The notes under the pieces: model-generated
The model's database searches: none
The model's input: the letters and a program-made list of their open reading frames with translations, nothing else
Told to the model about the DNA's origin: nothing
Position numbers and translations under genes: made by a program
Shown: positions 2,718 to 37,250 of the stretch, one piece after another
Layout: each line of letters starts with the position of its first letter
Position numbering within the stretch: position 1 is the first letter of the stretch
NCBI GenBank assembly: GCA_964443575.1
Contig: CAYUDZ010000005.1
Span: 1 to 44,082, forward strand
Origin: an uncultured Chthoniobacteraceae bacterium
Lineage (GTDB): Bacteria; Verrucomicrobiota; Verrucomicrobiia; Chthoniobacterales; CAKUMP01
DNA: 44,082 nt
Direction of reading: 5' to 3'

Positions 2718-3950
2718 ATGGCAGCTCTCCCGGAAAAAGCTGCCCGCACTTACAGCCTGGACCGTCGCAAGGCAATGTTGATGGGCATTGTCGAGACCGC
2801 GATGCAGACATTTTTGCTGCTTATTGCGGTCAAAGCATTTTCCTCGGGAGCAACAATCAAGTCGCTATTGGTTATTGGCGGGCCGCTGGGCCTGGTCCTC
2901 AACCCATTGGGCATCATGCTGGTTCGTAAGCGCAACTGGACCCCGGCATTTGGAGCGTTCATTTTTCATTTACTTGCCTGTGCCGGTTTCCTTTTTGCCT
3001 CAATGGCTACTGCCCCGTGGGCATTTGTCGCCGGCAGCATGACCGGCGCAATCGGCCTCACCATGAGCATCCCGCTAATCACCCAAATTTATCAGAATAA
3101 TTACCCGAAGGATAAACGGGGGCAGCTCTTCTCCCGCACGGTGGTAGTGCGTATGCTGGCCGCCGCAGGTTTTTCCTGGTTGGGCGGCACTTTGCTACAG
3201 GAGTCGATCGATAATTACCGCTGGCTGATGCTAACCTTTGCCGTCGCATCGGCGATCGCCGGATTAATCGTGGCGAAGATGCCCAGCGTGCCACTAAGCA
3301 AAGTCACATCGTCGAATCCGTTTCATGGCTGGCGGCATGTGCGTGAGGATGCTGCCTTTCGCTGGTTGTTGATCAGCTGGATGCTCATGGGCATCGGCAA
3401 CCTGATGATGCTACCGCTGCGGGTGGATTTTGTCGCTAACCCGGATTTTGGTATCCAGTTGCCGGCCGAGCAGATCGCTATGCTCACCGGCGTGATACCG
3501 AGTGCCACCATGCTATTCCTGAGCCCGGTATGGGGGCCGATTTTCGACCGCTATAACTTCTACCTGCTGCGACTGTTGCTCAATATTGCCTTTATCGCAG
3601 CGATCATCAGCTACTTCGTCGTCCAGGGGTTCACTGGCTTTGTCGTCGGCTCACTATTCTTTGGAATCGCCATGTCGGGTGGTAATATTGCCTGGTCCTT
3701 ATGGGTCACTAAAATTGCCAAGCCGGATGATGTGACAGAGTATATGTCAGTTCATACTGCACTGGCAGGCATGCGGGGGGTCACTGCTCCGGCATTTGGA
3801 TTTTTTCTGGCAGGCATCATCCCGATCGAAATCCTGGCTTGGGCAAGCATCCTCCTGATAGCTGCCGGAACGGTGATCCTGGCTCCGGAAACACGGACGA
3901 TCCGCCGCCGCCGTCCCGGCGAACCAGTCGTCCCGCGCGACTGGGATTAG
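2718..3950 (+). CDS. MFS transporter
   Basis: About 12 hydrophobic segments in two halves, YPKDKRG and WGPIFDR loops; ATG 2718 just after the oppC stop. Confidence 0.8.
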   Translation: MAALPEKAARTYSLDRRKAMLMGIVETAMQTFLLLIAVKAFSSGATIKSLLVIGGPLGLVLNPLGIMLVRKRNWTPAFGAFIFHLLACAGFLFASMATAPWAFVAGSMTGAIGLTMSIPLITQIYQNNYPKDKRGQLFSRTVVVRMLAAAGFSWLGGTLLQESIDNYRWLMLTFAVASAIAGLIVAKMPSVPLSKVTSSNPFHGWRHVREDAAFRWLLISWMLMGIGNLMMLPLRVDFVANPDFGIQLPAEQIAMLTGVIPSATMLFLSPVWGPIFDRYNFYLLRLLLNIAFIAAIISYFVVQGFTGFVVGSLFFGIAMSGGNIAWSLWVTKIAKPDDVTEYMSVHTALAGMRGVTAPAFGFFLAGIIPIEILAWASILLIAAGTVILAPETRTIRRRRPGEPVVPRDWD

Positions 3951-4041
3951 CCCTAATAGAGCACAAATCCGTAACAAATTTTACCTTTGGTCTGTGCGTT
4001 GTGATCGTTTACTAGTTTTAGCCGATAGATCGGATTTTATA

Positions 4042-6882
4042 ATGACACAGGATAACGAAAATATTAGTAACCCCGACCTTCTAGCAACCGCAGCTTTGTC
4101 GCTGCCCGATGATTTAAAGTCTTACCCGTGCACCATTTTCTTAAAATACAAAGGTGTGATCCTTGCAGTAGGTCATGCTAAAGCGGGGCACCCGGATGGT
4201 TCAGAGGTGGAGTTGCTGCCTGCGTTTGAAGACGCCTGTCTGCCACACGCATCCTGTGAGCTTTGGGCTGTCTGTCATAGCTCAGACTCTCGAGGTCCTT
4301 ATGCTGCCTTCGGTGATTACTATCATATCGAGCAAGCACTTACCGCAACCAGACTACCAAAGCTGTATTTACCGGCATCGGTCAGCTGGTACCAACGGGA
4401 ACTATCAGATGAATCCAACTTGCTAACCATCCACTATCTTAATTACTCGGGTAATTATGACAATGTGGGGCTTTGGACCTGGGATGCCTACCAGCAGCGT
4501 ATGCCTCGCCATCTTGAGGTATTTCCTTCGGGGAGCGGTGAATTCGGCCTGGTGTTCCAGATTGATACTGCCAAATATGGCATCCCTTCTAACCCATTGC
4601 GTATTGGTATCGCCCCGAGGTTACGCGGCGATTGGAAGCATAAAGATGGCGAGGACCGCTTCTGGACACCAGCCATGGGAAACACTGTCTATTTGCTCGC
4701 GGGACATAGCGAAATCTATTGTGAAAAACCATTGACCGGTCCGCACCTGACGGACGCTCATATTGACACAGCCAACATAATCCATCTCGACCTCTCACAC
4801 CCTATCACCGCAGGGGAGGTAAACCCGAAGCTTTTCCAGCTGAAACAGGATAACGATATATTAATCGGAATTGCTGAAGCCAAGCTTCTATTTGCCGATG
4901 ATAACTTGAACTCAACCGTGATTGAGTTGGTAACTGAAACTGTATTGGACATTGAGTACAGTGGGTACGAAATTACCATGGAGGGATACGGCTCCTACAT
5001 TCCTGCAGTGCCAAGGGCTATCCTCGAAGATCCCGACTACTTTCTCGATCCAGAGGCTAAGTTAGGTGCCCAAGTGGACGAGCGGGAAACCACGTTTCGG
5101 GTCTTTGCTCCGACAGCTAGTTCCGTGCAAGTAATCCTATATGATAGTCCACAGGGTGACAGTGGTCGCAGTGAGCTGCCCATGCAACGTTCCGGTAAAG
5201 GAATTTGGGCGGCAAACTACCCGGAAAACCTGGAAGGTAAGTTCTACAATTATCTAATTGGCGGTTGCGGGTTTTCACAGCGCGGAGAAACGACTGATAT
5301 CTACGCTGTCAACGCGGTCGATAGTTCGCGCCGCGCCCGAATCACCAGAGCAGCTCCACAGTTAGGCAAAATCGCACTTAATACCTCCGGTACGCCTGAG
5401 GAAGCATCGCCAGTCGACGCCATTATCTGGGAAATCCATGTGCGTGATTTCTCGATCAGTGACAACTCGGGTATGCAAAACCGCGGTAATTATCTGGCTT
5501 TTACGGAAGACAATACTCATCTGCCCGGCGCCCCGGACATTCGAACCGGAATCGAACACATCGTAGAACTTGGGGTCACCCATGTTCAAATTCTGCCAGT
5601 CCATGATTATGAAGGTGACGAGCTGAATTACCGTTATAACTGGGGTTACATGACCAATCTGTTCAATACGCCGGAGGGGGCTTACGCCAGCAATCCCCTG
5701 GATGAGTCACGGGTGGTTGAATTAAAGGCAATGATAAATGCGCTGCACCAGCATGGCATCGGCGTCATTCTGGATGTTGTCTATAACCATACCGGTACTG
5801 CGGCACCTTTCAATTTGCACGTACCGAAATACTACTACCGACATAATCCAGATGGCAGTTACTCCAATGGCTCCGGCACCGGCAATGAATTTCGCTCAGA
5901 AGCGCCAATGGGCCGTAAATACATAATCGATACCTTGCTGCACTGGGTTGAAGAGTACGATGTGGACGGTTTCCGCTTCGACCTGATGGCCTTGATTGAC
6001 ATCGAAACCATGAAGCAGGCTGAAAGCAAGCTGCGCCAATTGAAGCCAAACATTATCCTCTACGGGGAACCATGGCAGGCTGACAGCTCACCGCTGCAAA
6101 CACCAACTGACAAGCATTCCATTGCCGATACCGGGATTGGGGCATTCAATGATGATTTCCGCAACGCGGTCAAGGGTGACCCCAGTGGTGATGGCCCGGG
6201 CTATATACAAAATGGTTCACACCGCTTCAACGTAGAGCACACCATGGCTGCCAGCCGCCAGTATTGGGCTGCCAGTCCGGCACATACTATCAATTACATG
6301 ACCTGCCACGATAACCTGACTCTCTACGATAAGCTGAAACTATCGTGCCCCGATGCCGATGCCGGGCAAATCGAGGCGATGGCACGCATAGGCTTCTTCA
6401 TCCTCCTGACGGCGCAAGGAGTTCCTTTTATTCATGCCGGCAGTGAGTTCCTCCGAACTAAATACGGCGACCATAACAGCTATCAATCGCCTGACTCAAT
6501 CAACCAAATTGACTGGTCACTGAAACAAAAAAACATCGAACTTTTTAACTATGTGCAAAAATTAATTGCAATCCGCAAAGCCCATCCGCTGTTTCGCTTG
6601 CGTACTGCCTCGGAGGTCGAAGCGCGGGTGCACTTCCATTTCACCCCCTCCGGTGACAGTATTATTTGCACGGTTGATGGCAGCGATTTAGAGGGCGAAA
6701 AATGGCTTGGTGTCGCACTGTTAATCAATGCCAGCGATACCGATCATCATAAGCTTACTTTGCCTGAGGGCAACTGGAGCGTGGTTCTGGATCCACTTGG
6801 CGATGAAACCAACGAGTCGGCGCATTCCGCTATCAATGTGCCACCAAAATCTGCTATCATGTTACGCCTCAACCCAGATTAA
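4042..6882 (+). CDS. pulA: Type I pullulanase (GH13) with CBM41-like and CBM48 domains
   Basis: YNWGY signature, DVVYNH, GFRFDLM, YGEPW, CHDN catalytic regions; TFRVFAPTA (CBM48); IHY...Y...GLWTW (CBM41-like). No signal peptide seen. Confidence 0.9.
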
Positions 6883-28972: not shown

Positions 28973-30232
28973 CTATTGCGGACGGGCCTGCATGCTCGAG
29001 ACCGCCTCGAAGATACTGGTCACAATCGTATAGACTACGACGCCGACAAGTAAGGCAATACAAGTGATGACAACCGGCTGGATCAACGCGGTAATCTGCT
29101 GGATGCGACGGTTCATTTCTTTTTCGTAACGCGTCGCGGCTTTCTCCAGGCTGCTGGCTAAATCACCCGTCTGCTCACCGACCCCCACCAGATCAACAAA
29201 TACCTCCGGGAAACCTCCAACCCGTTTCATCGCTCGCGAAAATGCACCGCCATCTGCCACGATGTTGGCTATCCGCTCGATTTTACCGGAGTAATATGTA
29301 TTGCCGGAGGCCTCTTGCATCAACTTGAGTCCTGATAGTAAAGGCAGCCCGTTACCCACCAGGTTAGCCAGAGTCTGGCAAAACTGCGCCAGGAAACCGC
29401 AGTTAATCACGGGACCAAACAGCGGTAAACCCAACTTGAACCGATCCCACCAGACACGTCCCTCAGGCCGCTTGATTACGGCCATAAACGCTATTACCAC
29501 AAGCACGATCACCGCCAATATTATCCACCAGTAAGAACTGAAAAAGTTACTGGTACCGATCAGCAGCTTGGTCAACAAGGGCAGCTCACGCTCAGATTTT
29601 TCAAATAGCTTGATCAGCTGAGGTACCAACACCAGCATGAACAACACCATCATCAGTAATCCGGCCCCCACAATAAACGCCGGGTAAATTAGCGCCTGGA
29701 TAATTTGACCGCGCAAATCAGCAATTATCGAAAGATAGCCAACCTGTCGCTTCAAAATTTTTGGCAGAGCACCGCTCAGCTCCCCGGCCGCACACAAGCT
29801 GCAATACAGGTCACCAAAACTGGGACTGGATTGTTTCAATGCTTCAGAAAAACCGGTTCCGTCCCTGACCTTGCGCCGCAACATGCCAGCCAAAGCTTTG
29901 ATTTGGGATTTTTCCTGGCGTTGCTCGATAATTCGCAGTGCCGACTCTAGCTGCAAACCTGCATCCAGCAGATCGCTTAATTCCTCGGTAAAAAAAATGA
30001 TCTGCTGCTTCGATAAGCGCACTTTCCCATCTATTGGTGCCTCAGATTCGCGATCGGCATCACTACCCTGGCGCTTTGTAACAACCTTCTCCTGGCCAAG
30101 CTGAATGACGCTGACCGGTTGCAACTTCTGCCTGTCCAACTGGATGATGGCATCGGCCTTGTTGCGTGCCTCGATTTCACCGGTGAGCGTCCGCCCCTCA
30201 CGATTGGCCGCCTTGTAACTAAAGACGCTCAC
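28973..30232 (-). CDS. gspF: Type II secretion / type IV pilus platform protein (GspF/PilC)
   Basis: FSYKA, two T2SSF repeats (AGELSG.L, VGEQTG.L), ALIYP, C-terminal TM. Confidence 0.9.
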   Translation of the reverse strand: MSVFSYKAANREGRTLTGEIEARNKADAIIQLDRQKLQPVSVIQLGQEKVVTKRQGSDADRESEAPIDGKVRLSKQQIIFFTEELSDLLDAGLQLESALRIIEQRQEKSQIKALAGMLRRKVRDGTGFSEALKQSSPSFGDLYCSLCAAGELSGALPKILKRQVGYLSIIADLRGQIIQALIYPAFIVGAGLLMMVLFMLVLVPQLIKLFEKSERELPLLTKLLIGTSNFFSSYWWIILAVIVLVVIAFMAVIKRPEGRVWWDRFKLGLPLFGPVINCGFLAQFCQTLANLVGNGLPLLSGLKLMQEASGNTYYSGKIERIANIVADGGAFSRAMKRVGGFPEVFVDLVGVGEQTGDLASSLEKAATRYEKEMNRRIQQITALIQPVVITCIALLVGVVVYTIVTSIFEAVSSMQARPQ

Positions 30233-32022
30233 TCGTCCATTGCCTCCACGTCGGATACCGTCACCCGTAAAACTTCTTCAACTGTGGTCTCACCGGCTAT
30301 CACTTTATTCCAGCCGTCCTGGCGCAATGGCAACATTCCTTCGGCAATCGCTACCGGACGCAACACGGTACCGGGCTCACGTGCAGTAATCATCTCCTCC
30401 AAGCGCGGGCTGAGAATACACATTTCCATGATCGCTCTGCGGCCGGCATAGCCGGTGAAACGGCAACGTTCACAGCCAACAGCTTTGCGGATTTTATCTG
30501 CATGTTGTACTGGAAAGCCAATGTCAGCGAGGTATTCATGCTGGTACTCAGCCGGTTCCCGGCAATCCTTACATAGAACGCGCACCAGTCGCTGGGCCAG
30601 AAAAGCTCGCACCGATGAGCTGACCAGAAACGGCTCAACGCCCATATCCAGTAGGCGCGTAATGCCACCGATCGCGTCGTTGGTATGTAAGGTGCTAAAT
30701 ACCAGGTGCCCGGTAAGCGCCGCCCGAATAGCAATTTCGGTAGTTTCGAGGTCGCGCATCTCACCCACCATGACGACATTCGGGTCGCCACGCAGGATAC
30801 TGCGCAAGCCGCTGGCGAAGGTCAGGTTGATCTCCGGGCGTACGGCAATCTGGATCACCCCCTCGAGTTTCTGTTCCACCGGGTCTTCTATGGTCACTAT
30901 CCTCCGGTCCTTGGTGTTCAGCACGCTCAGAAATGCGTAGAGGGAAGTCGACTTACCGCAGCCGGTTGGCCCGGTCAGAAGGATAATACCATTGGGCATA
31001 TCCAGCAGCGAACGTACTTTTCCGGCAGACTTATCATCTAACCCGAGCATATCAAAATTGAACCGTTGCTGCCCGAGCAGTCGCATGCTGATGCTTTCCC
31101 CGGTGACCGACGGAATTGTTGCTACACGCACATCGATCGGGCGACCTTCAAATTCCAGATTGATTCGACCATCCTGCGGCAACCGCCTTTCAGCGATATC
31201 AAGATCAGCCATGATTTTTAACCGTGACAAGACAGACGACTGAAGCAGCTTGATCTGGGAAGGCACGGGGATTTCATGCAGCACTCCATCAATCCGGTAA
31301 CGAATTCTCAGGTCATCTTCGAGCGGCTCGATATGGATATCGGTAGCTCGTTCGCGCAACGCTTCACGGATGATCTGGTTGACAAATTTAACCACCGAGG
31401 CTTCCGAGTCATCCATATCGAGGATCGTCGTCTCTTGCTTTAACTCGCTGACCACTGCATCATCACCTCGCTCTGCCAACAACTCCTCAAATGTTTCAGC
31501 TCCTATTCCGTACCCCTGCCGCAACGACTCGAGGATTTGTCGACGTGTGGCCATCCCCCACAGGAACGGCCCCGTGACCTTGCGGTTGACTGTCTGCCGG
31601 GCAAAAAAATCGAACGGGTCATAGGTTAGGATCCTGATCCGCGACACTTCCGCATCCGTTTCTTCTTCGCTATCACTATCCTTGGTCTCAGCCTGCGGTT
31701 CATACTCTTCATTCTGTGGCAGCAAATGATAGCGTAAGGCAATCCGTACCGGAAAGCGCTCGCGCAACGGCGCCGGCACGGGCTGAATATCATCGCCAAA
31801 CCACGGCAAGCCGGTAAGCCCGGCCAAGCGTTCTAAAAAGGCCGATTCACTGAAATTACCCAGATCCAGCATCGCGCTGACCAATGGCCGCTTTTGCTCG
31901 CGCGCTTCTTCCAGTGTCTCTCGACATGCCTCTATATCGGTGCAGCCAGCTTCCTCGGCGGCCTGCAGCAGGAGGGCCGCAGGTTTTGTTGCAATTTTTT
32001 CTGATGGAGCTGATACCGACAT
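30229..32022 (-). CDS. gspE: Type II secretion / pilus assembly ATPase (GspE/PulE/PilB)
   Basis: ERRLPQDGR, GPTGCGKS, TIEDPVE, VGEMRD, TGHLVFSTLHTND, CKDC...CERC. Confidence 0.92.
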   Translation of the reverse strand: MSVSAPSEKIATKPAALLLQAAEEAGCTDIEACRETLEEAREQKRPLVSAMLDLGNFSESAFLERLAGLTGLPWFGDDIQPVPAPLRERFPVRIALRYHLLPQNEEYEPQAETKDSDSEEETDAEVSRIRILTYDPFDFFARQTVNRKVTGPFLWGMATRRQILESLRQGYGIGAETFEELLAERGDDAVVSELKQETTILDMDDSEASVVKFVNQIIREALRERATDIHIEPLEDDLRIRYRIDGVLHEIPVPSQIKLLQSSVLSRLKIMADLDIAERRLPQDGRINLEFEGRPIDVRVATIPSVTGESISMRLLGQQRFNFDMLGLDDKSAGKVRSLLDMPNGIILLTGPTGCGKSTSLYAFLSVLNTKDRRIVTIEDPVEQKLEGVIQIAVRPEINLTFASGLRSILRGDPNVVMVGEMRDLETTEIAIRAALTGHLVFSTLHTNDAIGGITRLLDMGVEPFLVSSSVRAFLAQRLVRVLCKDCREPAEYQHEYLADIGFPVQHADKIRKAVGCERCRFTGYAGRRAIMEMCILSPRLEEMITAREPGTVLRPVAIAEGMLPLRQDGWNKVIAGETTVEEVLRVTVSDVEAMDE

Positions 32023-32165
32023 GGATAATTAATCTATGCCATCCACACTAATTGTAAATATCTCTTGCCCGATTACGAGCAGTTTTGAGTCAGTATCCTT
32101 TTCCTAATCATGATCACAACCTGGACTATTGGCCCTGAAGGCGAATATTACGGGCAAGATTCGGA

Positions 32166-32642
32166 TTAGCTTTGCTCGGAACACTTGGGACAGATCCCGA
32201 AGACTTCAAGAGAGTGGGTCACATTGGAAAATCCAGCATCACGGGCAGCCTGCTCGAGCGGTCCGGCGACACATTGCTTATCGAGTATCTCGACGCTATG
32301 GCAGCGACGGCAAATAATATGGTGGTGGTGGTTGCCACCGATTTCAAAGCGCTGGGCACCGTCGCCAAAATCGCAACGGCGTACAATTGCTACTTCCGCT
32401 AGCGCCGATAACGACCGGTAAAGTGTCACCAGATCACAGGTGCCGGCAGGCAGGCGGTCATGGATTTCCTCTACCGTAAATGGTCCATGCTCACGTGCCA
32501 GGACTTCCAGCATGGCACGGCGCGGTGCAGTCATTCGCAAGTTCGACTGCGCTAACTCAACCAACGCCTTATCCAGCAATTCAGTATTTTCCTCGCTGTC
32601 GTGACACTTGCAGCCGGTGACATGGTTCGCAACGTTATCCAT
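32166..32642 (-). CDS. Fur-family transcriptional regulator (Zur-like features)
   Basis: RMTAPRRAML, TLYRSL, HHHHIICRRC, C-terminal GICPKC; N-terminal HVTGCKCH extension. Confidence 0.9.
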   Translation of the reverse strand: MDNVANHVTGCKCHDSEENTELLDKALVELAQSNLRMTAPRRAMLEVLAREHGPFTVEEIHDRLPAGTCDLVTLYRSLSALAEVAIVRRCDFGDGAQRFEIGGNHHHHIICRRCHSVEILDKQCVAGPLEQAARDAGFSNVTHSLEVFGICPKCSEQS

Positions 32643-32667
32643 TAATCCACAGTAACCGGAAAGCCGC

Positions 32668-32714
32668 AAAAAATAAACCGGCTGGTGGAATAATAATTCC
32701 TACCAGCCGGTTTA
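32668..32714 (-). terminator. Intrinsic terminator after the outer-membrane barrel gene
   Basis: TAAACCGGCTGGT / ACCAGCCGGTTTA 13-bp stem plus inner GGAAT/ATTCC stem, followed on the minus strand by TTTTTT. Confidence 0.8.
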
Positions 32715-32736
32715 CTCTGAAGTTAGTATATTGCTT

Positions 32737-33780
32737 TTAAAATGCGTATTGCCAACCTACAACCAACATCCAATCCCTAGCTAACTGCAGACCGTTGACA
32801 TCCTGATAAATCGGAACAACAACTTCTACGCCAAGCCTGTTTCTCGATAGCGCTCCCTCTGCCACCTGAAAATTAACACCAAAACCAGCATCAAGGTAGG
32901 TGCCCCCTGAATTACTGGCATCCATTGGCGGTGCCATTATACGCGAAATTCTTCGATCCACTCCTTCTATCTCAGAGATGTAGTCAGCTGACAAACGAAC
33001 TGATAGGCTCACCCAGTCTGACAGCATGCACGCCAACCAAGCAGTACCGTTGACCCGATCCCCGAAAGAGTATCCACGGTCATTATCACCAAGATGAATT
33101 CTACCGGAAAGTTGTGTTCCACCGGATAGTATACCGGCCTGCCAGAGCCAGGTGGCACTAGGCAGCAAATCCCAAGTCCCGGTGGTAAATTGCATCGGGT
33201 AAGCAAGTTCATTCTGTTCGCCAATTGGTACACTCACGCCAAGCCCTAAATGGACACGCTGATGATGGTCATTATAGATTCGAAAGAGTGCGGAACACTT
33301 AAGGTCTCCCCAGCCGCTCACTTCGTTGCTAAACGTAGCCCCTCTCATAATCCTAGCCATACTTCCCGGTGCGGTCACATGATCCATCGACTTTTCCCCG
33401 TAACTTCCCATCAACATCAAGGTGAGCCAATCTGCCGGTGCGTACATCCCTCCAAACATGTGCATTTGTGTTTGCATGCTAGTTGGTGCTACCGCAAAGC
33501 CACGCTCAAATACCCCTTGCGAACTGACGCTGTCGGTACCAGCTTTTTGTCCGTCCATTGCCATGAACATATAGCGGTAGGAGAGCATAAACTCACCACC
33601 GTGATGGGTATGGTCAGACATCACTCCGATCGGCGCATGCGAGTCTGGACGACTCGGATCCCAAAAACTATTCACCTCTAACTCATTACTCTGCTTGCTA
33701 TCAATAACCACTTCATCCGCCGGCAGAATAGTGCCGGTAAAACAAAAAATTCCCGCTGAAAATACAATTAATTTATTCAT
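32737..33780 (-). CDS. Met/His-rich outer-membrane beta-barrel protein, putative metal channel
   Basis: Signal peptide, RPDSHAPIGVMSDHTHH motif, amphipathic strands, C-terminal WQYAF. Confidence 0.75.
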   Translation of the reverse strand: MNKLIVFSAGIFCFTGTILPADEVVIDSKQSNELEVNSFWDPSRPDSHAPIGVMSDHTHHGGEFMLSYRYMFMAMDGQKAGTDSVSSQGVFERGFAVAPTSMQTQMHMFGGMYAPADWLTLMLMGSYGEKSMDHVTAPGSMARIMRGATFSNEVSGWGDLKCSALFRIYNDHHQRVHLGLGVSVPIGEQNELAYPMQFTTGTWDLLPSATWLWQAGILSGGTQLSGRIHLGDNDRGYSFGDRVNGTAWLACMLSDWVSLSVRLSADYISEIEGVDRRISRIMAPPMDASNSGGTYLDAGFGVNFQVAEGALSRNRLGVEVVVPIYQDVNGLQLARDWMLVVGWQYAF

Positions 33781-34000
33781 AAATATCATGCTGTTTATAT
33801 AGGCACAGCTTGAGCCTTTGTAAGCTAATTGAACTCGACGTGCTCCCAAAAGTCATTCCGGGAAGCTCGTAGAGCAAACTCAAGAATCCTGCTAACCCCG
33901 ACCTAAGCCGGTCTGCAAAAACCCGTTCACACGGGCATTTCATGCAAAGGGAAAAACCACTCTCTTGAAGATCAGGATTTGTCCCGATTAGAACTTCAAA
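33781..34000 (-). promoter_or_regulatory. Structured intergenic RNA leader / candidate attenuator
   Basis: At least three hairpins whose non-Watson-Crick pairs are G-U on the minus strand; one is GCCCGT-GTGA-ACGGGT-TTTT. Confidence 0.5.
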
Positions 34001-34372
34001 TTACCATCGTGGTGGTGGCGTCAAAGGGGCAGGGTCCAACGCCTCGGCAAACATCCCAGACACAACTAAAGTGCCGACCTGCTTTCTGGCAGACAGAATC
34101 CATGCTTTCAATAGAGTAAATCCGAGAACAGGTTTGTTTTCATCGTGTGCGGGTAATTGCCCGGAATCATGGTGCTTATCTGCTAGTTCGAGTATTGCTG
34201 CGTGACATCTGGCACATGCCCTTTCACCGCTAAAGGTGTCACTAACAGCTACCACCAGCGGATGATTGCGCAAGGCCTCGCCCAGCATTGATGACCACCC
34301 GATCACCTGAATCCCTGGACCACTAAACCCAGATACCTGAAATGCTACCACCAGAACTAGGAGCCGCAGCAT
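34001..34372 (-). CDS. DUF2946/CruR-like small membrane protein with CxxC and C-terminal PPPR, candidate leader peptide
   Basis: Hydrophobic N-terminus, TFSGERACARCH, ends PAPLTPPPRW. Start 34372 (alternative 34429). Confidence 0.65.
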   Translation of the reverse strand: MLRLLVLVVAFQVSGFSGPGIQVIGWSSMLGEALRNHPLVVAVSDTFSGERACARCHAAILELADKHHDSGQLPAHDENKPVLGFTLLKAWILSARKQVGTLVVSGMFAEALDPAPLTPPPRW

Positions 34373-34466
34373 GCCCTGCCCAAGTTGCTTCGACTTGGAA
34401 TCATCAATTTGCAGGCTTTCAAAGATCATCGCATGTTGCCCCTAGGAAACATTCTCAGCTTTCAGA

Positions 34467-35018
34467 CTACTCCCTGGATCTCAGGTCTTCGATGAGGTAG
34501 GCCAATGCCTCGGCCTGATTGGGGTGGTGTGCCAGCTCGGATTTCAGTCCGGTAAGCTTATTGTACAGCTCGGCGCCGAGCTTATTCTGGAGTCGTTGTT
34601 CGTGCTGCTTAGTGAACTCGCTATCGCGGATTGCTTTCTGCCATGGCGCGGTAAAAATCTTATGCAGGTTGCGGTGGATACCGCCGTTCTTGAGTGCTTC
34701 CCACTCGCCTTCATCGAGCCAAACACCACCGGTCACTGATCGATCGACCCGGAAGTCCAGACCGTGGCCGACACGATAACGGGTCATTAATGTCCCGCTT
34801 TCCGGGCAAATTTTTACCATGTCATCAAATTCACTACAGGGACTCTCGGGGGCATCCTCCTGCTCAGGCGTATCATTCTTTGGTTGTGTATGCTGCCATT
34901 TCCAATAGTCCTCGAGTGCTATGTAAATACCATTGCTTTGTGGGCAGCGATAAACCTTTAAGCCGCCTTCAAGAGTCTCCTCGCTCAGCTCTGCTGCTTT
35001 ATTTACCGGGCTTCTCAT
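34467..35018 (-). CDS. zf-TFIIB-like tandem zinc-ribbon protein with most cysteines lost
   Basis: MRSPVN / YRCPQSNGIYI / ICPESGTLM / VDRSVTGGVWLDEGEW pattern. Confidence 0.6.
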   Translation of the reverse strand: MRSPVNKAAELSEETLEGGLKVYRCPQSNGIYIALEDYWKWQHTQPKNDTPEQEDAPESPCSEFDDMVKICPESGTLMTRYRVGHGLDFRVDRSVTGGVWLDEGEWEALKNGGIHRNLHKIFTAPWQKAIRDSEFTKQHEQRLQNKLGAELYNKLTGLKSELAHHPNQAEALAYLIEDLRSRE

Positions 35019-35039
35019 TGTTCTTTTTTGGGTTAGTGG

Positions 35040-35459
35040 TTATTGAAAGGTGATATTTTTTACTCCTGCAGCGCCACATGCCGTCATCACTTCGATGATT
35101 CGTGAATGCCGGGTGCGCGAGTCCGGGTTCAATACGACAACCTGGCTGTTGGGTCCGGTTGCCAGTTTTTCCTGCAACCAGTTACGCAATAGCGGTCGCC
35201 GACTGCGTTGGGTGACAAACACCTGCTCATCGCCAATTGTCACTTGGCCGTCCTCCGCAATATTGATGATGATAGGCTCACTGGCTGCCGGTGCGCTGTC
35301 GCTGTCACTCACATTGGGCAGGTTCGTATCTGTCTGCCGCTCGATCATTTGCACGCCTACATTTGCCATAAAGAACAGTAGCAGCACAAAAATTACATCA
35401 ACCATCGGTGCTATCTGAAACCCGATATCTCCATCATCTGTACTCAGTTGTCCCGCCAT
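35040..35459 (-). CDS. exbD: Biopolymer transporter ExbD/TolR
   Basis: IAPMVDVIFVLLLFFM TM with conserved Asp; GVKNITF. Confidence 0.88.
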   Translation of the reverse strand: MAGQLSTDDGDIGFQIAPMVDVIFVLLLFFMANVGVQMIERQTDTNLPNVSDSDSAPAASEPIIINIAEDGQVTIGDEQVFVTQRSRRPLLRNWLQEKLATGPNSQVVVLNPDSRTRHSRIIEVMTACGAAGVKNITFQ

Positions 35460-35467
35460 ATGATACC

Positions 35468-35953
35468 TCAGCTTGTTTCCTGTTCCGTCTCAGCCCGGTC
35501 GTCGATAACAGAAAATGTCACGTTGGTAACGCCTGCCTTGCCGAGGGCCTGCATTAATTCCTTCAGGTAAGCGTAGCGGGTATTGCGGTGGGCGCGAACC
35601 ACCACGCGCATCGACGAGTTCTTCAATAGCAGTCGCTGAATTGCCGGCATCAATTCCTCCGGCTGCTGATAGCTTTCGTTATTCATGGTGATCGAGCCAA
35701 TCTCGGTCACCGGTTCCCAACCGATATTGATAATTGTCTGGGTGTTATTTTTAAGTGTACTCCCGGCCTCTGCAGATGCCGGCAGCTTGATATCCTGATC
35801 CGCCTGCATCAATTCGGTCGAACTGATCGACAAAAAGAAAACCAGCAGCACCAGCAACACGTCGATCATCGGTGCGACTTGAAATTCCGGAGATTCATCC
35901 AACTCACGATGCTTTGCCAACCTCGCTTGCTGGGCTTTGTTACATTGCAACAT
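35468..35953 (-). CDS. exbD: Biopolymer transporter ExbD/TolR, second copy
   Basis: VAPMIDVLLVLLVFFL, IKLP, VVVRA, AGVTNVTF. Confidence 0.88.
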   Translation of the reverse strand: MLQCNKAQQARLAKHRELDESPEFQVAPMIDVLLVLLVFFLSISSTELMQADQDIKLPASAEAGSTLKNNTQTIINIGWEPVTEIGSITMNNESYQQPEELMPAIQRLLLKNSSMRVVVRAHRNTRYAYLKELMQALGKAGVTNVTFSVIDDRAETEQETS

Positions 35954-35971
35954 GGCAGTTAACCGTGTGAC

Positions 35972-36955
35972 CTAGTCTTTCCAGCTCAGGGTGGCACCGC
36001 AGTGCGGACACGGGTTGACCCCGGGCTCGATATCGCCGCTGCAAACCGGACAATTGGTGGTCATCGACAGTGAGACACTACGCGCCATCATGCCCTCGGT
36101 TCCAATCTCCCGGTTACTCACGCTAAATTGTTCACCAATCCGCACACCCTCCAACTCTTCGTAGGGCAAGTCCACCAGCAGGCTATTAATCTTGTCGTCG
36201 GCAAAGACGATAGCGATTTGCGCAGAGTTCCTGAATACGTAGTAAAAAATAAATGCCGGAATGGCAATGAACAGCCCCCCCGCAGTAGCAAAGAGCACCT
36301 CCGCGATCGATGTTGACAACGCACGCGGATCAGAAATCCCGTAATCCCCCAGTGTGGAAAAGGCACCGATCATCCCGATCACAGTACCCAACAGCCCCAA
36401 CATCGGTGACACTACACCGATGACCGACAGATAACTGTTGCGCGTGCGAATCAGTTGCGCCTCTCGCAGACCATGGTCGATTACCGCGTCGTAAGTCGCC
36501 TCTTTGCCACGCCCGATGCGTTCCAGTGCACCACCCATCACATTCGCCAGATAATTATTATTGCTCTGGCAGATCTGCCAGGCTTCCTGGTAATTGCCAT
36601 TGGTGATTGCCTCGCGGATCGAGAATACCAGTGGTGGTGGAGCTACCTTATCTCTGCGAAGGGTCAGTAAGTTTTGCACCACCAGCGCAACCATTACGAT
36701 TGAGGTAGCAAAAATTGCCATCCAGATCAGAACAAGTAGTGGCCCCCCACCAAGAATTATCTCCATAACCGTTTGCCCCTCTTCTGCCTCCGCCGCCTGC
36801 ACGCTGGCCAGCGGCAAACTGATCAGGCAAAAAAACAGCCGCAACAATAAGCGCTTGGCATTAGCTGTTCGCGGCAATCCGCTGGTCTCGTGATTTGCCT
36901 CCGGGGGAGCAGTTTCAGGCGCTAAGACAGCACTGCGAAGTTGTGAATTTTTCAT
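35972..36955 (-). CDS. exbB: MotA/TolQ/ExbB proton channel with C-terminal zinc ribbon
   Basis: SPMLGLLGTVIGMI.AF, IAEVL.ATAGGL.IAIPA; tail CPVC-x10-CPHCG. Start uncertain (36955 or downstream). Confidence 0.85.
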   Translation of the reverse strand: MKNSQLRSAVLAPETAPPEANHETSGLPRTANAKRLLLRLFFCLISLPLASVQAAEAEEGQTVMEIILGGGPLLVLIWMAIFATSIVMVALVVQNLLTLRRDKVAPPPLVFSIREAITNGNYQEAWQICQSNNNYLANVMGGALERIGRGKEATYDAVIDHGLREAQLIRTRNSYLSVIGVVSPMLGLLGTVIGMIGAFSTLGDYGISDPRALSTSIAEVLFATAGGLFIAIPAFIFYYVFRNSAQIAIVFADDKINSLLVDLPYEELEGVRIGEQFSVSNREIGTEGMMARSVSLSMTTNCPVCSGDIEPGVNPCPHCGATLSWKD

Positions 36956-37250
36956 GGCTGATTGTTTTATAGCATCACTAATGCCATCATTTATGGCAGT
37001 TCTAAACATTTCAGATCAGGGAAAGCTTGCCAAGAAACAAAAACAGCTAAAATCTGGCGCGCCAAAAATCGTTCTCAAGCAGCCACTGACCGGCTGCGGG
37101 TTATCGGGTCGTACGGTTCATCTGCGCGAATTGCCGATTGTGGTGGCATCCTGGAAAACGACGACTTTAAGTTTCTCATTGCACATGCCATAGTCATCAC
37201 GCATATAGATCTTTCCGCAATCGGAAAAATCAACCAAGCTAACACCCCGC

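Follow-up and report, generated by a model that had tools for sequence, protein, structure and literature searches.

A candidate metal-sensing leader of the CutF/CruR type before a Met/His-rich outer-membrane channel in Verrucomicrobiota

We analysed 44,082 nucleotides of an uncultured Chthoniobacteraceae bacterium (Verrucomicrobiota; contig CAYUDZ010000005.1 of assembly GCA_964443575.1), hereafter the window, in which a small open reading frame (ORF) of 123 codons, hereafter the leader, precedes the gene of an outer-membrane barrel (Table 1). We lean towards the view that this ORF is a cis-acting, metal-sensing leader of the type of CutF from Rhodobacter capsulatus and CruR from Bordetella pertussis, that the metal would most likely be copper, and that the gene behind it encodes an outer-membrane channel rich in Met and His. 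The observations that carry this view are how the leader is built, how large and widespread its family is, the constant distance between its Cys pair and its proline tail, the recurrence of outer-membrane genes behind it, and the fold and invariant residues of the barrel. The class of such leaders is known. What appears to be new is a family that is distinct in sequence, spread across the phylum and unannotated, and that shows the plan of CutF and CruR before, among other genes, a small Met/His channel.

The leader and its family

In its 123-aa form the leader begins MLRLLVLVV and ends LTPPPRW, and its start at Met20 of the longer frame fits the usual start of the family ('MLR..'). It has a single hydrophobic N-terminal segment, residues 1-18, which is its only strongly hydrophobic stretch (Kyte-Doolittle value of about 2.0) and within which AlphaFold2 models a helix at residues 2-13. 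The same model, with a mean predicted local distance difference test score (pLDDT) of 75.7, places further helices at residues 19-36, 39-48 and 54-69 and little order beyond residue 70.

A word-based protein search with the leader returned the protein itself and one relative at 53%, so that a profile search was needed to reveal a family. Used alone, the sequence gave weak matches in 13 of 41 related genomes, and from these a profile was built. On the window's own genome this profile finds a single copy (E 6e-38). Across the phylum it finds one to three copies in each of 88 of 401 genomes, which represent 51 of 185 genera, and in a 1.84-billion library it matches 2976 representative proteins at E<=1e-3, 2323 of them at E<=1e-10. 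The relatives are mostly 120-180 aa long. They come from Terrimicrobiaceae, Chthoniobacterales and one cyanobacterial record, the sources annotate them only as 'hypothetical protein', and a Pfam match was found in none of 81 members.

The conserved positions form two groups. C53 and C56 are invariant among 11 sequences and again among 81. In the latter set W26, M29, T46 and G49 are also invariant, G15, W18, Q22, F47 and P52 nearly so, and the N-terminal domain follows the pattern ..W..LQ..AW..M...TF.G..PC..C. In the tail P116, P119 and P121 are invariant or nearly invariant. The linker between these two parts is free to vary in sequence and fixed in length: among the 145 sequences that could be scored of 151 representatives, the last Pro lies at a median of 64 residues beyond the second Cys (interquartile range [IQR] 62-66), and in 130 of the 145 only 1-5 residues follow the last Pro. 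The tail reads PPP followed by R in 72/145 and PVP-I/R/L in most of the others, giving the family consensus PPxPPPR. The window's leader has a distance of 65 residues, with two residues after the last Pro. By eye, the Pro codons differ synonymously between loci, which places the constraint on the peptide.

Copies of the gene can lie close together. Locus L053 (G159:C6) has a tandem pair about 500 nt apart, at 2992-3396 and 3908-4387 when counted in the direction of the leader, and the genome of this locus has three copies of the family on one contig, the third being in L062. A TonB-like reading of the leader, the gene of which follows exbB-exbD-exbD in the window, was dropped: Pfam scans show no TonB-type domain. 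An ExbB-like gene stands near just one other family locus, L057 (by eye, no Pfam scan).

Relationship to DUF2946

An earlier note on this DNA had likened the leader to DUF2946 proteins and proposed a search with their profile. The likeness stands for the architecture, with a hydrophobic N terminus, CxxC and a proline tail beside the stop codon, and falls for homology: by any sequence test that we ran, the leader is not a DUF2946 homologue. PF11162, the profile of DUF2946 (curated cut-off 23.7 bits), leaves the leader unmatched even at E<=10, finds nothing at its place in a six-frame search of the window's own genome, and matches none of the 81 family members. In the 401 genomes of the phylum, PF11162 has matches at E<=0.01 in 39 and above its cut-off in 9. 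A PF11162 match and a relative of the leader occur together in nine genomes, and their positions coincide in none of these. A comparison of profiles with hhalign, the 81 leader relatives against 11 true DUF2946 members of the phylum, gave a probability of 2.3%.

The signatures differ as well. True DUF2946 proteins of the phylum end in RAPP, RGPP or CGPP, whereas the leader ends in TPPPRW. It shares the CXXC of DUF2946 (C53ARC56) and lacks both RAPP about 3 residues from the end and the spacing of about 45 residues from CXXC to the arrest motif. In a protein atlas the neighbours of the leader are unnamed Verrucomicrobiota clusters. Clusters named for DUF2946 appear only at 0.91 (DUF6660, DUF6769; PF11162 on 23% of members) and have few features in common with the leader; we take them as a lead, not as evidence.

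Genes that follow the leader family

For 60 family loci we retrieved the flanking DNA, 3 kb on the upstream side and 6 kb on the downstream side. A next gene of at least 150 aa within 450 nt was present at 54 loci, the window included; these genes were clustered with BLAST and 20 representatives were scanned against Pfam. The next gene belongs to the window's own barrel cluster (PF13557-type) at 16 of the 54 loci and is a TonB-dependent receptor (Plug and barrel) at 15. It is a prepilin-like protein without Pfam match at six, a Met-rich secreted protein (MQGGMxMPM) at five, an ECF sigma factor at two, a large beta-propeller/haem-peroxidase-like protein at two, a His-start secreted protein at two and a singleton at six. 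Overwhelmingly these are envelope proteins, many with copper-type signatures; a minority has no recognisable metal link. Relatives of the leader thus do stand before outer-membrane genes of metal type, and the earlier note is not refuted on the point that it had named, a lack of consistent placement of leader homologues upstream of metal-handling genes.

Two contexts are of particular interest for the identity of the metal. The barrel cluster includes a subtype with a Cys motif and one fusion (L054, 3430-4746, plus strand) of a NosL copper-chaperone domain to a PF13557 barrel, the gene of which comes straight after a family leader. In both receptor loci scanned (L051, L064), the gene after the receptor matches PepSY_TM, and the second gene of L055, L057 and L060 falls in the BLAST cluster of that of L051. 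This order of receptor and PepSY_TM is a repeat of cruR-bfrG-bp2921, the order of the CruR operon (PMC9426467). Cus-like genes also occur downstream in some family loci (by eye, not scanned).

Other contexts are more varied. In L074 (3588-4112) and L076, from the same genus, the leader stands before an ECF sigma factor with a spacer of 166-206 nt. In L089, L091, L092, L093, L052, L061 and others it is followed by the prepilin-like protein (N-terminal FTLIELLVV); it bears a resemblance to DUF1559, a name that we do not adopt since the representative scanned has no Pfam match at E<=0.001. After the prepilin-like genes come secreted proteins whose predicted mature N terminus is His (AHISY.GRNFG, AGHLYAG), some of them with PEP-CTERM. 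We wondered whether these His-start proteins might carry a copper site of the histidine-brace type.

The same channel behind several leader families

The association can also be approached from the side of the barrel. A scan of genomes for barrel homologues kept its 80 best loci, and 76 of these, from many phyla, have at least 700 nt upstream. There we looked for same-strand ORFs that encode 50-260 aa, stop close to the barrel, contain a Cys motif and carry PP or PxP in the last 12 residues. Such an ORF is present upstream at 51 of the 76 loci, against 6/76 on the opposite strand and 2/68 downstream.

Only 12 of the 51 belong to the window's leader family, all of them in Verrucomicrobiota. In Flavobacteria the barrel is preceded by a different family (...CNGKCYLM...FHPP), in Alphaproteobacteria by ORFs that end in RAPP, and in Gemmatimonadota by further variants. 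In L131, L139, L141 and L153, labelled as Thermodesulfobacteriota, Spirochaetia, Anaerolineaceae and, for L139, 'uncultured bacterium', it is preceded by a CFCxxCC ORF ending in P[IT]RSPP; these ORFs are nearly identical across their differing taxon labels. Cyanobacterial barrel loci mostly lack an upstream ORF with a Cys motif and a proline tail (L130, L132-L135, L143, L145, L148, L149, L161, L163, L168, L172, L183).

The Flavobacterial family was compared with that of the window. It precedes the same barrel family (barrels 38-42% identical) and shares with the window's family a hydrophobic N terminus, a Cys motif and a PP placed 2-5 residues ahead of the stop codon. It differs in having three Cys in another motif and a tail of FHPP rather than PPxPPPR. 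It has no Pfam match, and hhalign between the two families gives 1.4%, that is, no detectable homology. Thus, among the three leader families compared (the window's, DUF2946 and the Flavobacterial one), neither of the other two has a detectable relationship to that of the window. That the same channel stands behind several leader families with the same end anatomy is in our view the strongest argument that leader and channel are a functional unit.

The outer-membrane channel

The 347-aa barrel has neither a Plug nor a TonB-receptor domain in Pfam, and TonB-dependent receptors are about 650 aa or more. The claim that it is too short for such a receptor is upheld by this length and by the absence of these domains; the fold is of the COG4313 type. 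PF13557 scores 22.5 bits against a cut-off of 22, a borderline match, and many homologues carry the same domain. The AlphaFold2 model (pLDDT 91.2) has as its best match in the Protein Data Bank (PDB) the COG4313 channel 4rl8 (E 4e-15; template modelling [TM] score 0.75-0.77 on target), followed by FapF and FadL. The barrel is therefore assigned to the COG4313 / Phenol_MetA_deg (PF13557) channels, with a predicted fold of the 12-strand type. The ATG at 33780 aligns with the start of the orthologue in G001, a genome of the same genus. At E<=1e-5 there are 732 homologues in many phyla, named 'transporter' by the sources; several cyanobacterial homologues are longer, at 431-485 aa.

The reference for this fold is Pput2725 of Pseudomonas putida F1 (4rl8; PMC4493636), with which the barrel shares the fold and PF13557 membership, whereas their sequences are only 12-13% identical. 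COG4313 channels are reported to be implicated in the uptake of hydrophobic molecules (PMC4493636). The window's subfamily differs from them by the invariant motifs HAPIGVM.DHTH, M.M.M and M...MHM.G.M and by neighbours of metal type. Residues 36-140 hold 12 Met and 6 His (17.1%), against 5.3% for the two in residues 141-347. H57, H59, M65, M75, M102, M106, H107, M112 and M132 are invariant in 53 barrel sequences, and the alignment and the model together show invariant His and Met alternating along the first strands (M71/M73/M75 and M102/M106/M108/M112). Ladders of Met with His suit Cu(I) or Ag(I) rather than Zn by their coordination chemistry. We read the barrel as a putative TonB-independent copper channel, for which uptake would be more likely than export. 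Our literature search found no title or abstract that ties the COG4313/PF13557/Phenol_MetA_deg barrel family to copper.

The spacer between leader and channel

Over a 281-nt stretch around the spacer the RNA folds somewhat better than its shuffles (z -2.23; 3/200 as good). It includes a hairpin just past the leader stop, and G001 likewise has a hairpin directly past its leader stop, of different sequence. Further on lies a terminator-like hairpin (GCCCGU-GUGA-ACGGGU followed by UUUUUG; -9.7 kcal/mol for a longer form). The only stretch of the spacer shared with G001, in an alignment of these two sequences, is the block at 33809-33790. Relatives for an analysis of covariation were sought by a metagenome scan with the barrel, which gave 18 loci; the best are only 47-49% identical, so the spacer comparison rests on two genomes.

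At the level of the family, the spacers have a median length of 120 nt (IQR 84-167; 54 loci), against 220 nt in the window. C exceeds G in 49 of the 54, with a mean skew of 0.168, where the leaders average 0.056 and the next genes 0.072. Such C-rich spacers fit Rho-utilisation sites as in CruR, and the RNA-binding domain of Rho (PF07497) is encoded at two places in the window's genome.

The Fur-family neighbour

The gene behind the barrel is one of four Fur paralogues in the genome and starts about 30 nt past a strong terminator. The subtype of its product is ambiguous: no NCBIfam subtype cut-off is reached (best 71 bits against 220), and among chains of known structure PerR, FurB/Zur and Fur come nearest and score similarly. 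It has an N-terminal extension H-x3-C-x-C-H (32595-32642, minus strand), NHVTGCKCH in the window and NHITDCECH in G001 (L086, about 4636-4680), a possible additional metal site. Of the 60 other family loci, only that of G001 has a Fur gene, and a second such gene lies upstream of its leader. In the window's genome and in G001, a search ahead of leader, barrel and fur gene found neither palindromes nor words of Fur/Zur type. With a neighbour limited to this genus and no such box, the idea that Fur or Zur adds a second regulatory layer, also put forward in the earlier note, is a conjecture that these results do not support; the gene is better seen as a separate, genus-specific neighbour.

Layout of the locus

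The leader ORF, the hairpin-rich spacer, the Met/His barrel and the terminator with its Fur-family gene are all present where they had been described, co-oriented on the minus strand and in that order (Table 1). The terminator between barrel and Fur-family gene is a 17-bp bulged hairpin followed by a U-run, and 0/200 shuffles fold as well. It is kept in G001, where by eye the inner stem is altered on both sides with pairing retained. A simple terminator scan reported neither this hairpin, which is bulged, nor the short one of the spacer; a second hairpin scanner did find the latter. An Rfam scan of 31000-36000 at E<=1 gave zero matches, and the alignment of the window with G001 upstream of the leader revealed no conserved element.

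Table 1. Features of the leader-barrel locus in the window
Feature	Position	Strand	Remarks
Leader ORF	34001..34372 (including stop)	-	123 aa from Met20 of a 142-aa frame; from the ORF list
Alternative leader start	ATG at 34429	-	would give 142 aa
Leader stop TAA	34003-34001	-	
C53-A-R-C56 codons (CxxC)	34205..34216	-	presumed metal-sensing site
P119-P-P-R-W123 codons, polyproline arrest-like tail	34004..34018	-	last Pro 2 residues before the stop
Leader-barrel spacer	33781..34000	-	220 nt
Hairpin beginning 2 nt past the leader stop	33965..33999	-	-11.6 kcal/mol, z -1.6
Terminator-like hairpin and U5 in the spacer	33916..33936	-	6-bp stem, GUGA loop
Block GCTGTGCC..AAACAGC, 5-bp inverted repeat	33790..33809	-	10-29 nt upstream of the barrel ATG
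Barrel ORF	32737..33780	-	347 aa, signal peptide, Met/His-rich N-terminal third
Intrinsic terminator between barrel and Fur-family gene	32665..32718 (approx.)	-	-36.8 kcal/mol, z -5.1
Fur-family gene	32166..32642	-	158 aa from MDNV...; PF01475, E 6e-22

Directly upstream of the leader and co-oriented with it (34467-37009, minus strand, gaps of 8-37 nt) lie an exbB gene, the product of which ends in a zinc-ribbon tail, two exbD genes and a gene for a protein of 183 aa that carries a pair of TFIIB-type zinc ribbons. The exbB/exbD genes have no tonB next to them, and the gene they precede is not a TonB-dependent receptor. Downstream of the Fur-family gene, on the same strand (28973-32022, minus), are genes for a T2SSE ATPase and a T2SSF platform protein; their presence here, and that of prepilin-like genes behind the leader family elsewhere, may be a coincidence.

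DISCUSSION

If the leader works as those of CutF and CruR do, its N-terminal hydrophobic segment would direct the nascent chain to the Sec translocon. The CxxC would emerge on the periplasmic side while the ribosome decodes the PPPRW tail about 65 residues later, and metal bound to the emerged Cys pair would alter the dwell of the ribosome on the polyproline tail beside the stop codon. The dwell time would then set the amount of downstream message that is made or translated. In this scheme we infer that the leader is exported, that it binds metal and that the ribosome stalls, and likewise the sign of the regulation and the coupling step. Since the contexts are mostly of the import type, our guess is that metal shuts the channel off, as in CruR. 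Copper is favoured as the metal by the Met ladders with His, the NosL fusion, the operons of receptor and PepSY_TM and the Cus-like genes seen by eye behind some loci.

One close model is CutF (cutFOG operon; counted under DUF2946 or as a CutF-like protein), which has the Cys pair C41xxxC45 and the tail P109EPEGPPPRL118. Its PPP is reported to be needed for stalling, and copper-induced stalling during export melts a stem-loop over the next ribosome-binding site (PMC9973294, bioRxiv 10.1101/2025.02.05.636593). The leader fits the rules on size, proline tail and Cys motif given for CutF-like proteins by Ozturk et al. 2023, with 123 aa, PPP at 119-121 of 123 and CxxC; for the Sec signal of that class it offers a hydrophobic N-terminal segment as a candidate. 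It resembles CutF in being shorter than 150 aa, in a Cys pair that would lie in the exported part, in the distance of about 65-68 residues from that pair to the PPP tail (GPPPRL in CutF, TPPPRW here), in ending that PPP two residues before the stop codon, and in lying immediately upstream of a gene that we read as an envelope copper gene. It differs in having CxxC instead of CxxxC and a distinct conserved N-terminal domain, in preceding an outer-membrane channel rather than a multicopper oxidase, and in a 220-nt spacer without pairing of tail and ribosome-binding site, where CutF has a short spacer with a stem-loop. Nor is there a detectable relationship to the DUF2946 members compared, CutF itself not being among them.

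The likeness to CruR lies elsewhere. CruR (Bp2923), the prototype of DUF2946, carries CXXC and RAPP at a conserved spacing of 45 residues, which in DUF2946 is kept to within 1-2 residues (PMC9426467). Its arrest has been demonstrated in vitro (PMC12992588); copper is reported to relieve it, with Rho-dependent termination in a 162-bp spacer (PMC9426467). The leader shares with CruR a CXXC, a proline motif of the arrest type close to the stop codon and a fixed spacing between the two. The family shares with it long spacers, outer-membrane import genes downstream, the recurring operon of receptor and PepSY_TM, and the C-richness that fits Rho-dependent control. Unlike CruR, the leader has no PF11162 match, its tail is PPxPPPR and not RAPP, its spacing is about 64 and not 45 residues, the window's spacer is not C-rich, and the target is a small TonB-independent barrel.

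These comparisons bear on novelty. The earlier note had thought the combination uncharacterised, which is too broad as to the class: 5,334 CutF-like proteins in 29 sequence clusters, mostly of Pseudomonadota and Bacteroidota with other phyla as a minor part, have been published (Ozturk et al.; PMC9973294 / bioRxiv 10.1101/2022.11.11.516240). As to the narrower claim, our literature search found no paper on a Verrucomicrobiota leader family of the CutF/CruR type. The word 'Verrucomicrobia' is absent from the main texts of PMC9973294 and PMC9426467, and the family may be among the entries of the published lists.

Several observations weigh against a sensing leader in the window, and most of them concern the coupling to the barrel. 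The terminator-like hairpin of the spacer is absent from the 114-nt spacer of G001. In the window its predicted pairing probability is 0.91-1.0 with or without the footprint of a ribosome stalled at Pro121 or at the stop codon, and masking that footprint brings out no alternative fold, hence no mutually exclusive anti-terminator. Across the family, terminator-like hairpins occur in 9/54 spacers, where shuffles lead one to expect 5.4. Attenuation by an intrinsic terminator, which the earlier note had suggested, thus comes down to a single short hairpin that forms regardless of the ribosome and is barely enriched; we rejected it as a device of the family and regard it as unsupported as a switch in the window. 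Pairing of the tail with the start of translation fares no better here, with a duplex of -2.7 kcal/mol (z +1.4). In the family it reaches z<=-2 at 8/54 loci, for example L049, L077, L096 and L101, where the Pro codons or those after them pair with GGAGG-like or start-proximal sequence as in CutF. Taken over all loci the effect is weak, three controls giving Wilcoxon p values of 0.15, 0.005 and 0.009, and since the loci are related the statistics of both pairing and skew overstate it. We therefore rejected the duplex as a universal mechanism. The window's spacer, with a skew of -0.13, is also one of the 5/54 in which C does not exceed G, so that the locus has neither of the coupling devices seen elsewhere in the family.

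Other objections concern the protein, the transcript and the metal. The export segment was called by hydropathy alone, and the leader lacks a sequence relationship to proteins of the tested type. A peptide that served for arrest alone would not need its first 70 residues to be so conserved and so well folded (pLDDT up to 96), which leaves room for a function as a mature protein. Co-oriented genes lie close upstream, so that other genes may precede the leader on its transcript. Copper was chosen on the grounds of motif chemistry, analogy and the NosL fusion, and CutF-like proteins are described as not all copper-specific (PMC9973294 / bioRxiv 10.1101/2022.11.11.516240). If the leader model is right nonetheless, we favour, at about even odds, a control in the window that would act on transcription through the 220-nt spacer, either Rho-dependent or by the short intrinsic terminator; control of translation initiation appears to us distinctly less probable.

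The alternative that survives best, rather unlikely in our judgement, is that the small protein is itself a working envelope protein, a membrane-anchored or periplasmic CxxC metallochaperone or a thiol-disulfide partner of the adjacent transporter. It would hand metal to the outer-membrane transporter or mature it, and the proline tail would be a structural or interaction motif. The conservation of W26, M29, T46 and G49 beyond the CxxC and the confident helices (pLDDT 86-96 at residues 21-50) are what one would expect of such a protein, and the retention of the gene beside several unrelated transporter types would suit a shared accessory factor. A linker of fixed length and variable sequence, together with PPxPPPR at 1-5 residues from the stop codon, is what a ruler predicts and is hard to explain for a folded partner. 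This alternative also has to account for the leader families without detectable relationship and with the same end anatomy that precede the same barrel elsewhere, and for the long, mostly C-rich spacers that follow the gene; mature CutF, moreover, is reported as undetectable in vivo (PMC9973294).

A second alternative separates the two genes. The hairpin and U5 at 33936-33916 would end the transcript of exbBD, zinc ribbon and leader, the 135 nt that are left would hold a promoter for the barrel, which the Fur-family repressor next door might control, and metal control would be ordinary transcriptional repression. The constitutive formation predicted for the hairpin agrees with this, as do the conserved block at 33809-33790, a weak promoter-like match just upstream of the barrel ATG (TTACAA-N18-TATAAA, by eye) and the Fur-family gene that adjoins the barrel in both genomes of the genus. 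A scan for consensus promoters, however, found none on the minus strand before the barrel, the promoter-like words are lost in G001, and the search for Fur/Zur-like palindromes ahead of leader, barrel and fur gene found none in either genome. Independent units would also leave unexplained why leader and barrel remain adjacent far beyond the genus, and we hold this arrangement to be quite improbable.

We give still less credence to the same architecture and mechanism sensing zinc or another thiophilic metal, with the Fur-family neighbour as Zur: solved FurB/Zur chains among the nearest relatives of that neighbour, the His-rich motif of the barrel, the mixed metal specificity of CutF-like proteins and the DUF2946 genes that head Zn/Cd efflux operons (czrCBA) in a Caulobacter Zur study (PMC4176598), the last of which also tells against copper, are outweighed by the invariant Met ladders with His, which suggest Cu(I)/Ag(I), by the NosL-barrel fusion, by receptor and PepSY_TM operons that match the copper-regulated cruR operon, and by a Fur link that is specific to the genus and reaches no subtype cut-off.

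We thus return to a CutF/CruR-type leader as the reading that we favour. A bolder version of it is a speculation that we consider improbable: that Verrucomicrobiota possess an arrest-peptide lineage of their own, independent or diverged, with a PPxPPPR tail and a ruler of 64 residues, which governs outer-membrane copper acquisition throughout the phylum; that in at least four phyla the same Met/His channel has acquired leaders without detectable relationship, by convergence on a co-translational sensor; and that in this genus the switch uses a short intrinsic terminator in place of Rho and is paired with a dedicated Fur paralogue, the extra H-x3-C-x-C-H site of which responds to the same metal.

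The finding, if true, would mean that copper-type control by stalling of the nascent chain is not peculiar to the proteobacterial DUF2946 family, and that one design has been reached repeatedly by families of small proteins without detectable relationship. The comparison across families suggests what this design needs: an export signal, a thiol pair, a ruler of fixed length and a proline stall beside the stop codon. The window, which has neither masking of the ribosome-binding site nor a C-rich spacer, makes a useful test case. Thousands of 'hypothetical' small proteins of Verrucomicrobiota would then have a function, and the widespread 'transporter' barrel would be a candidate for a TonB-independent copper channel.

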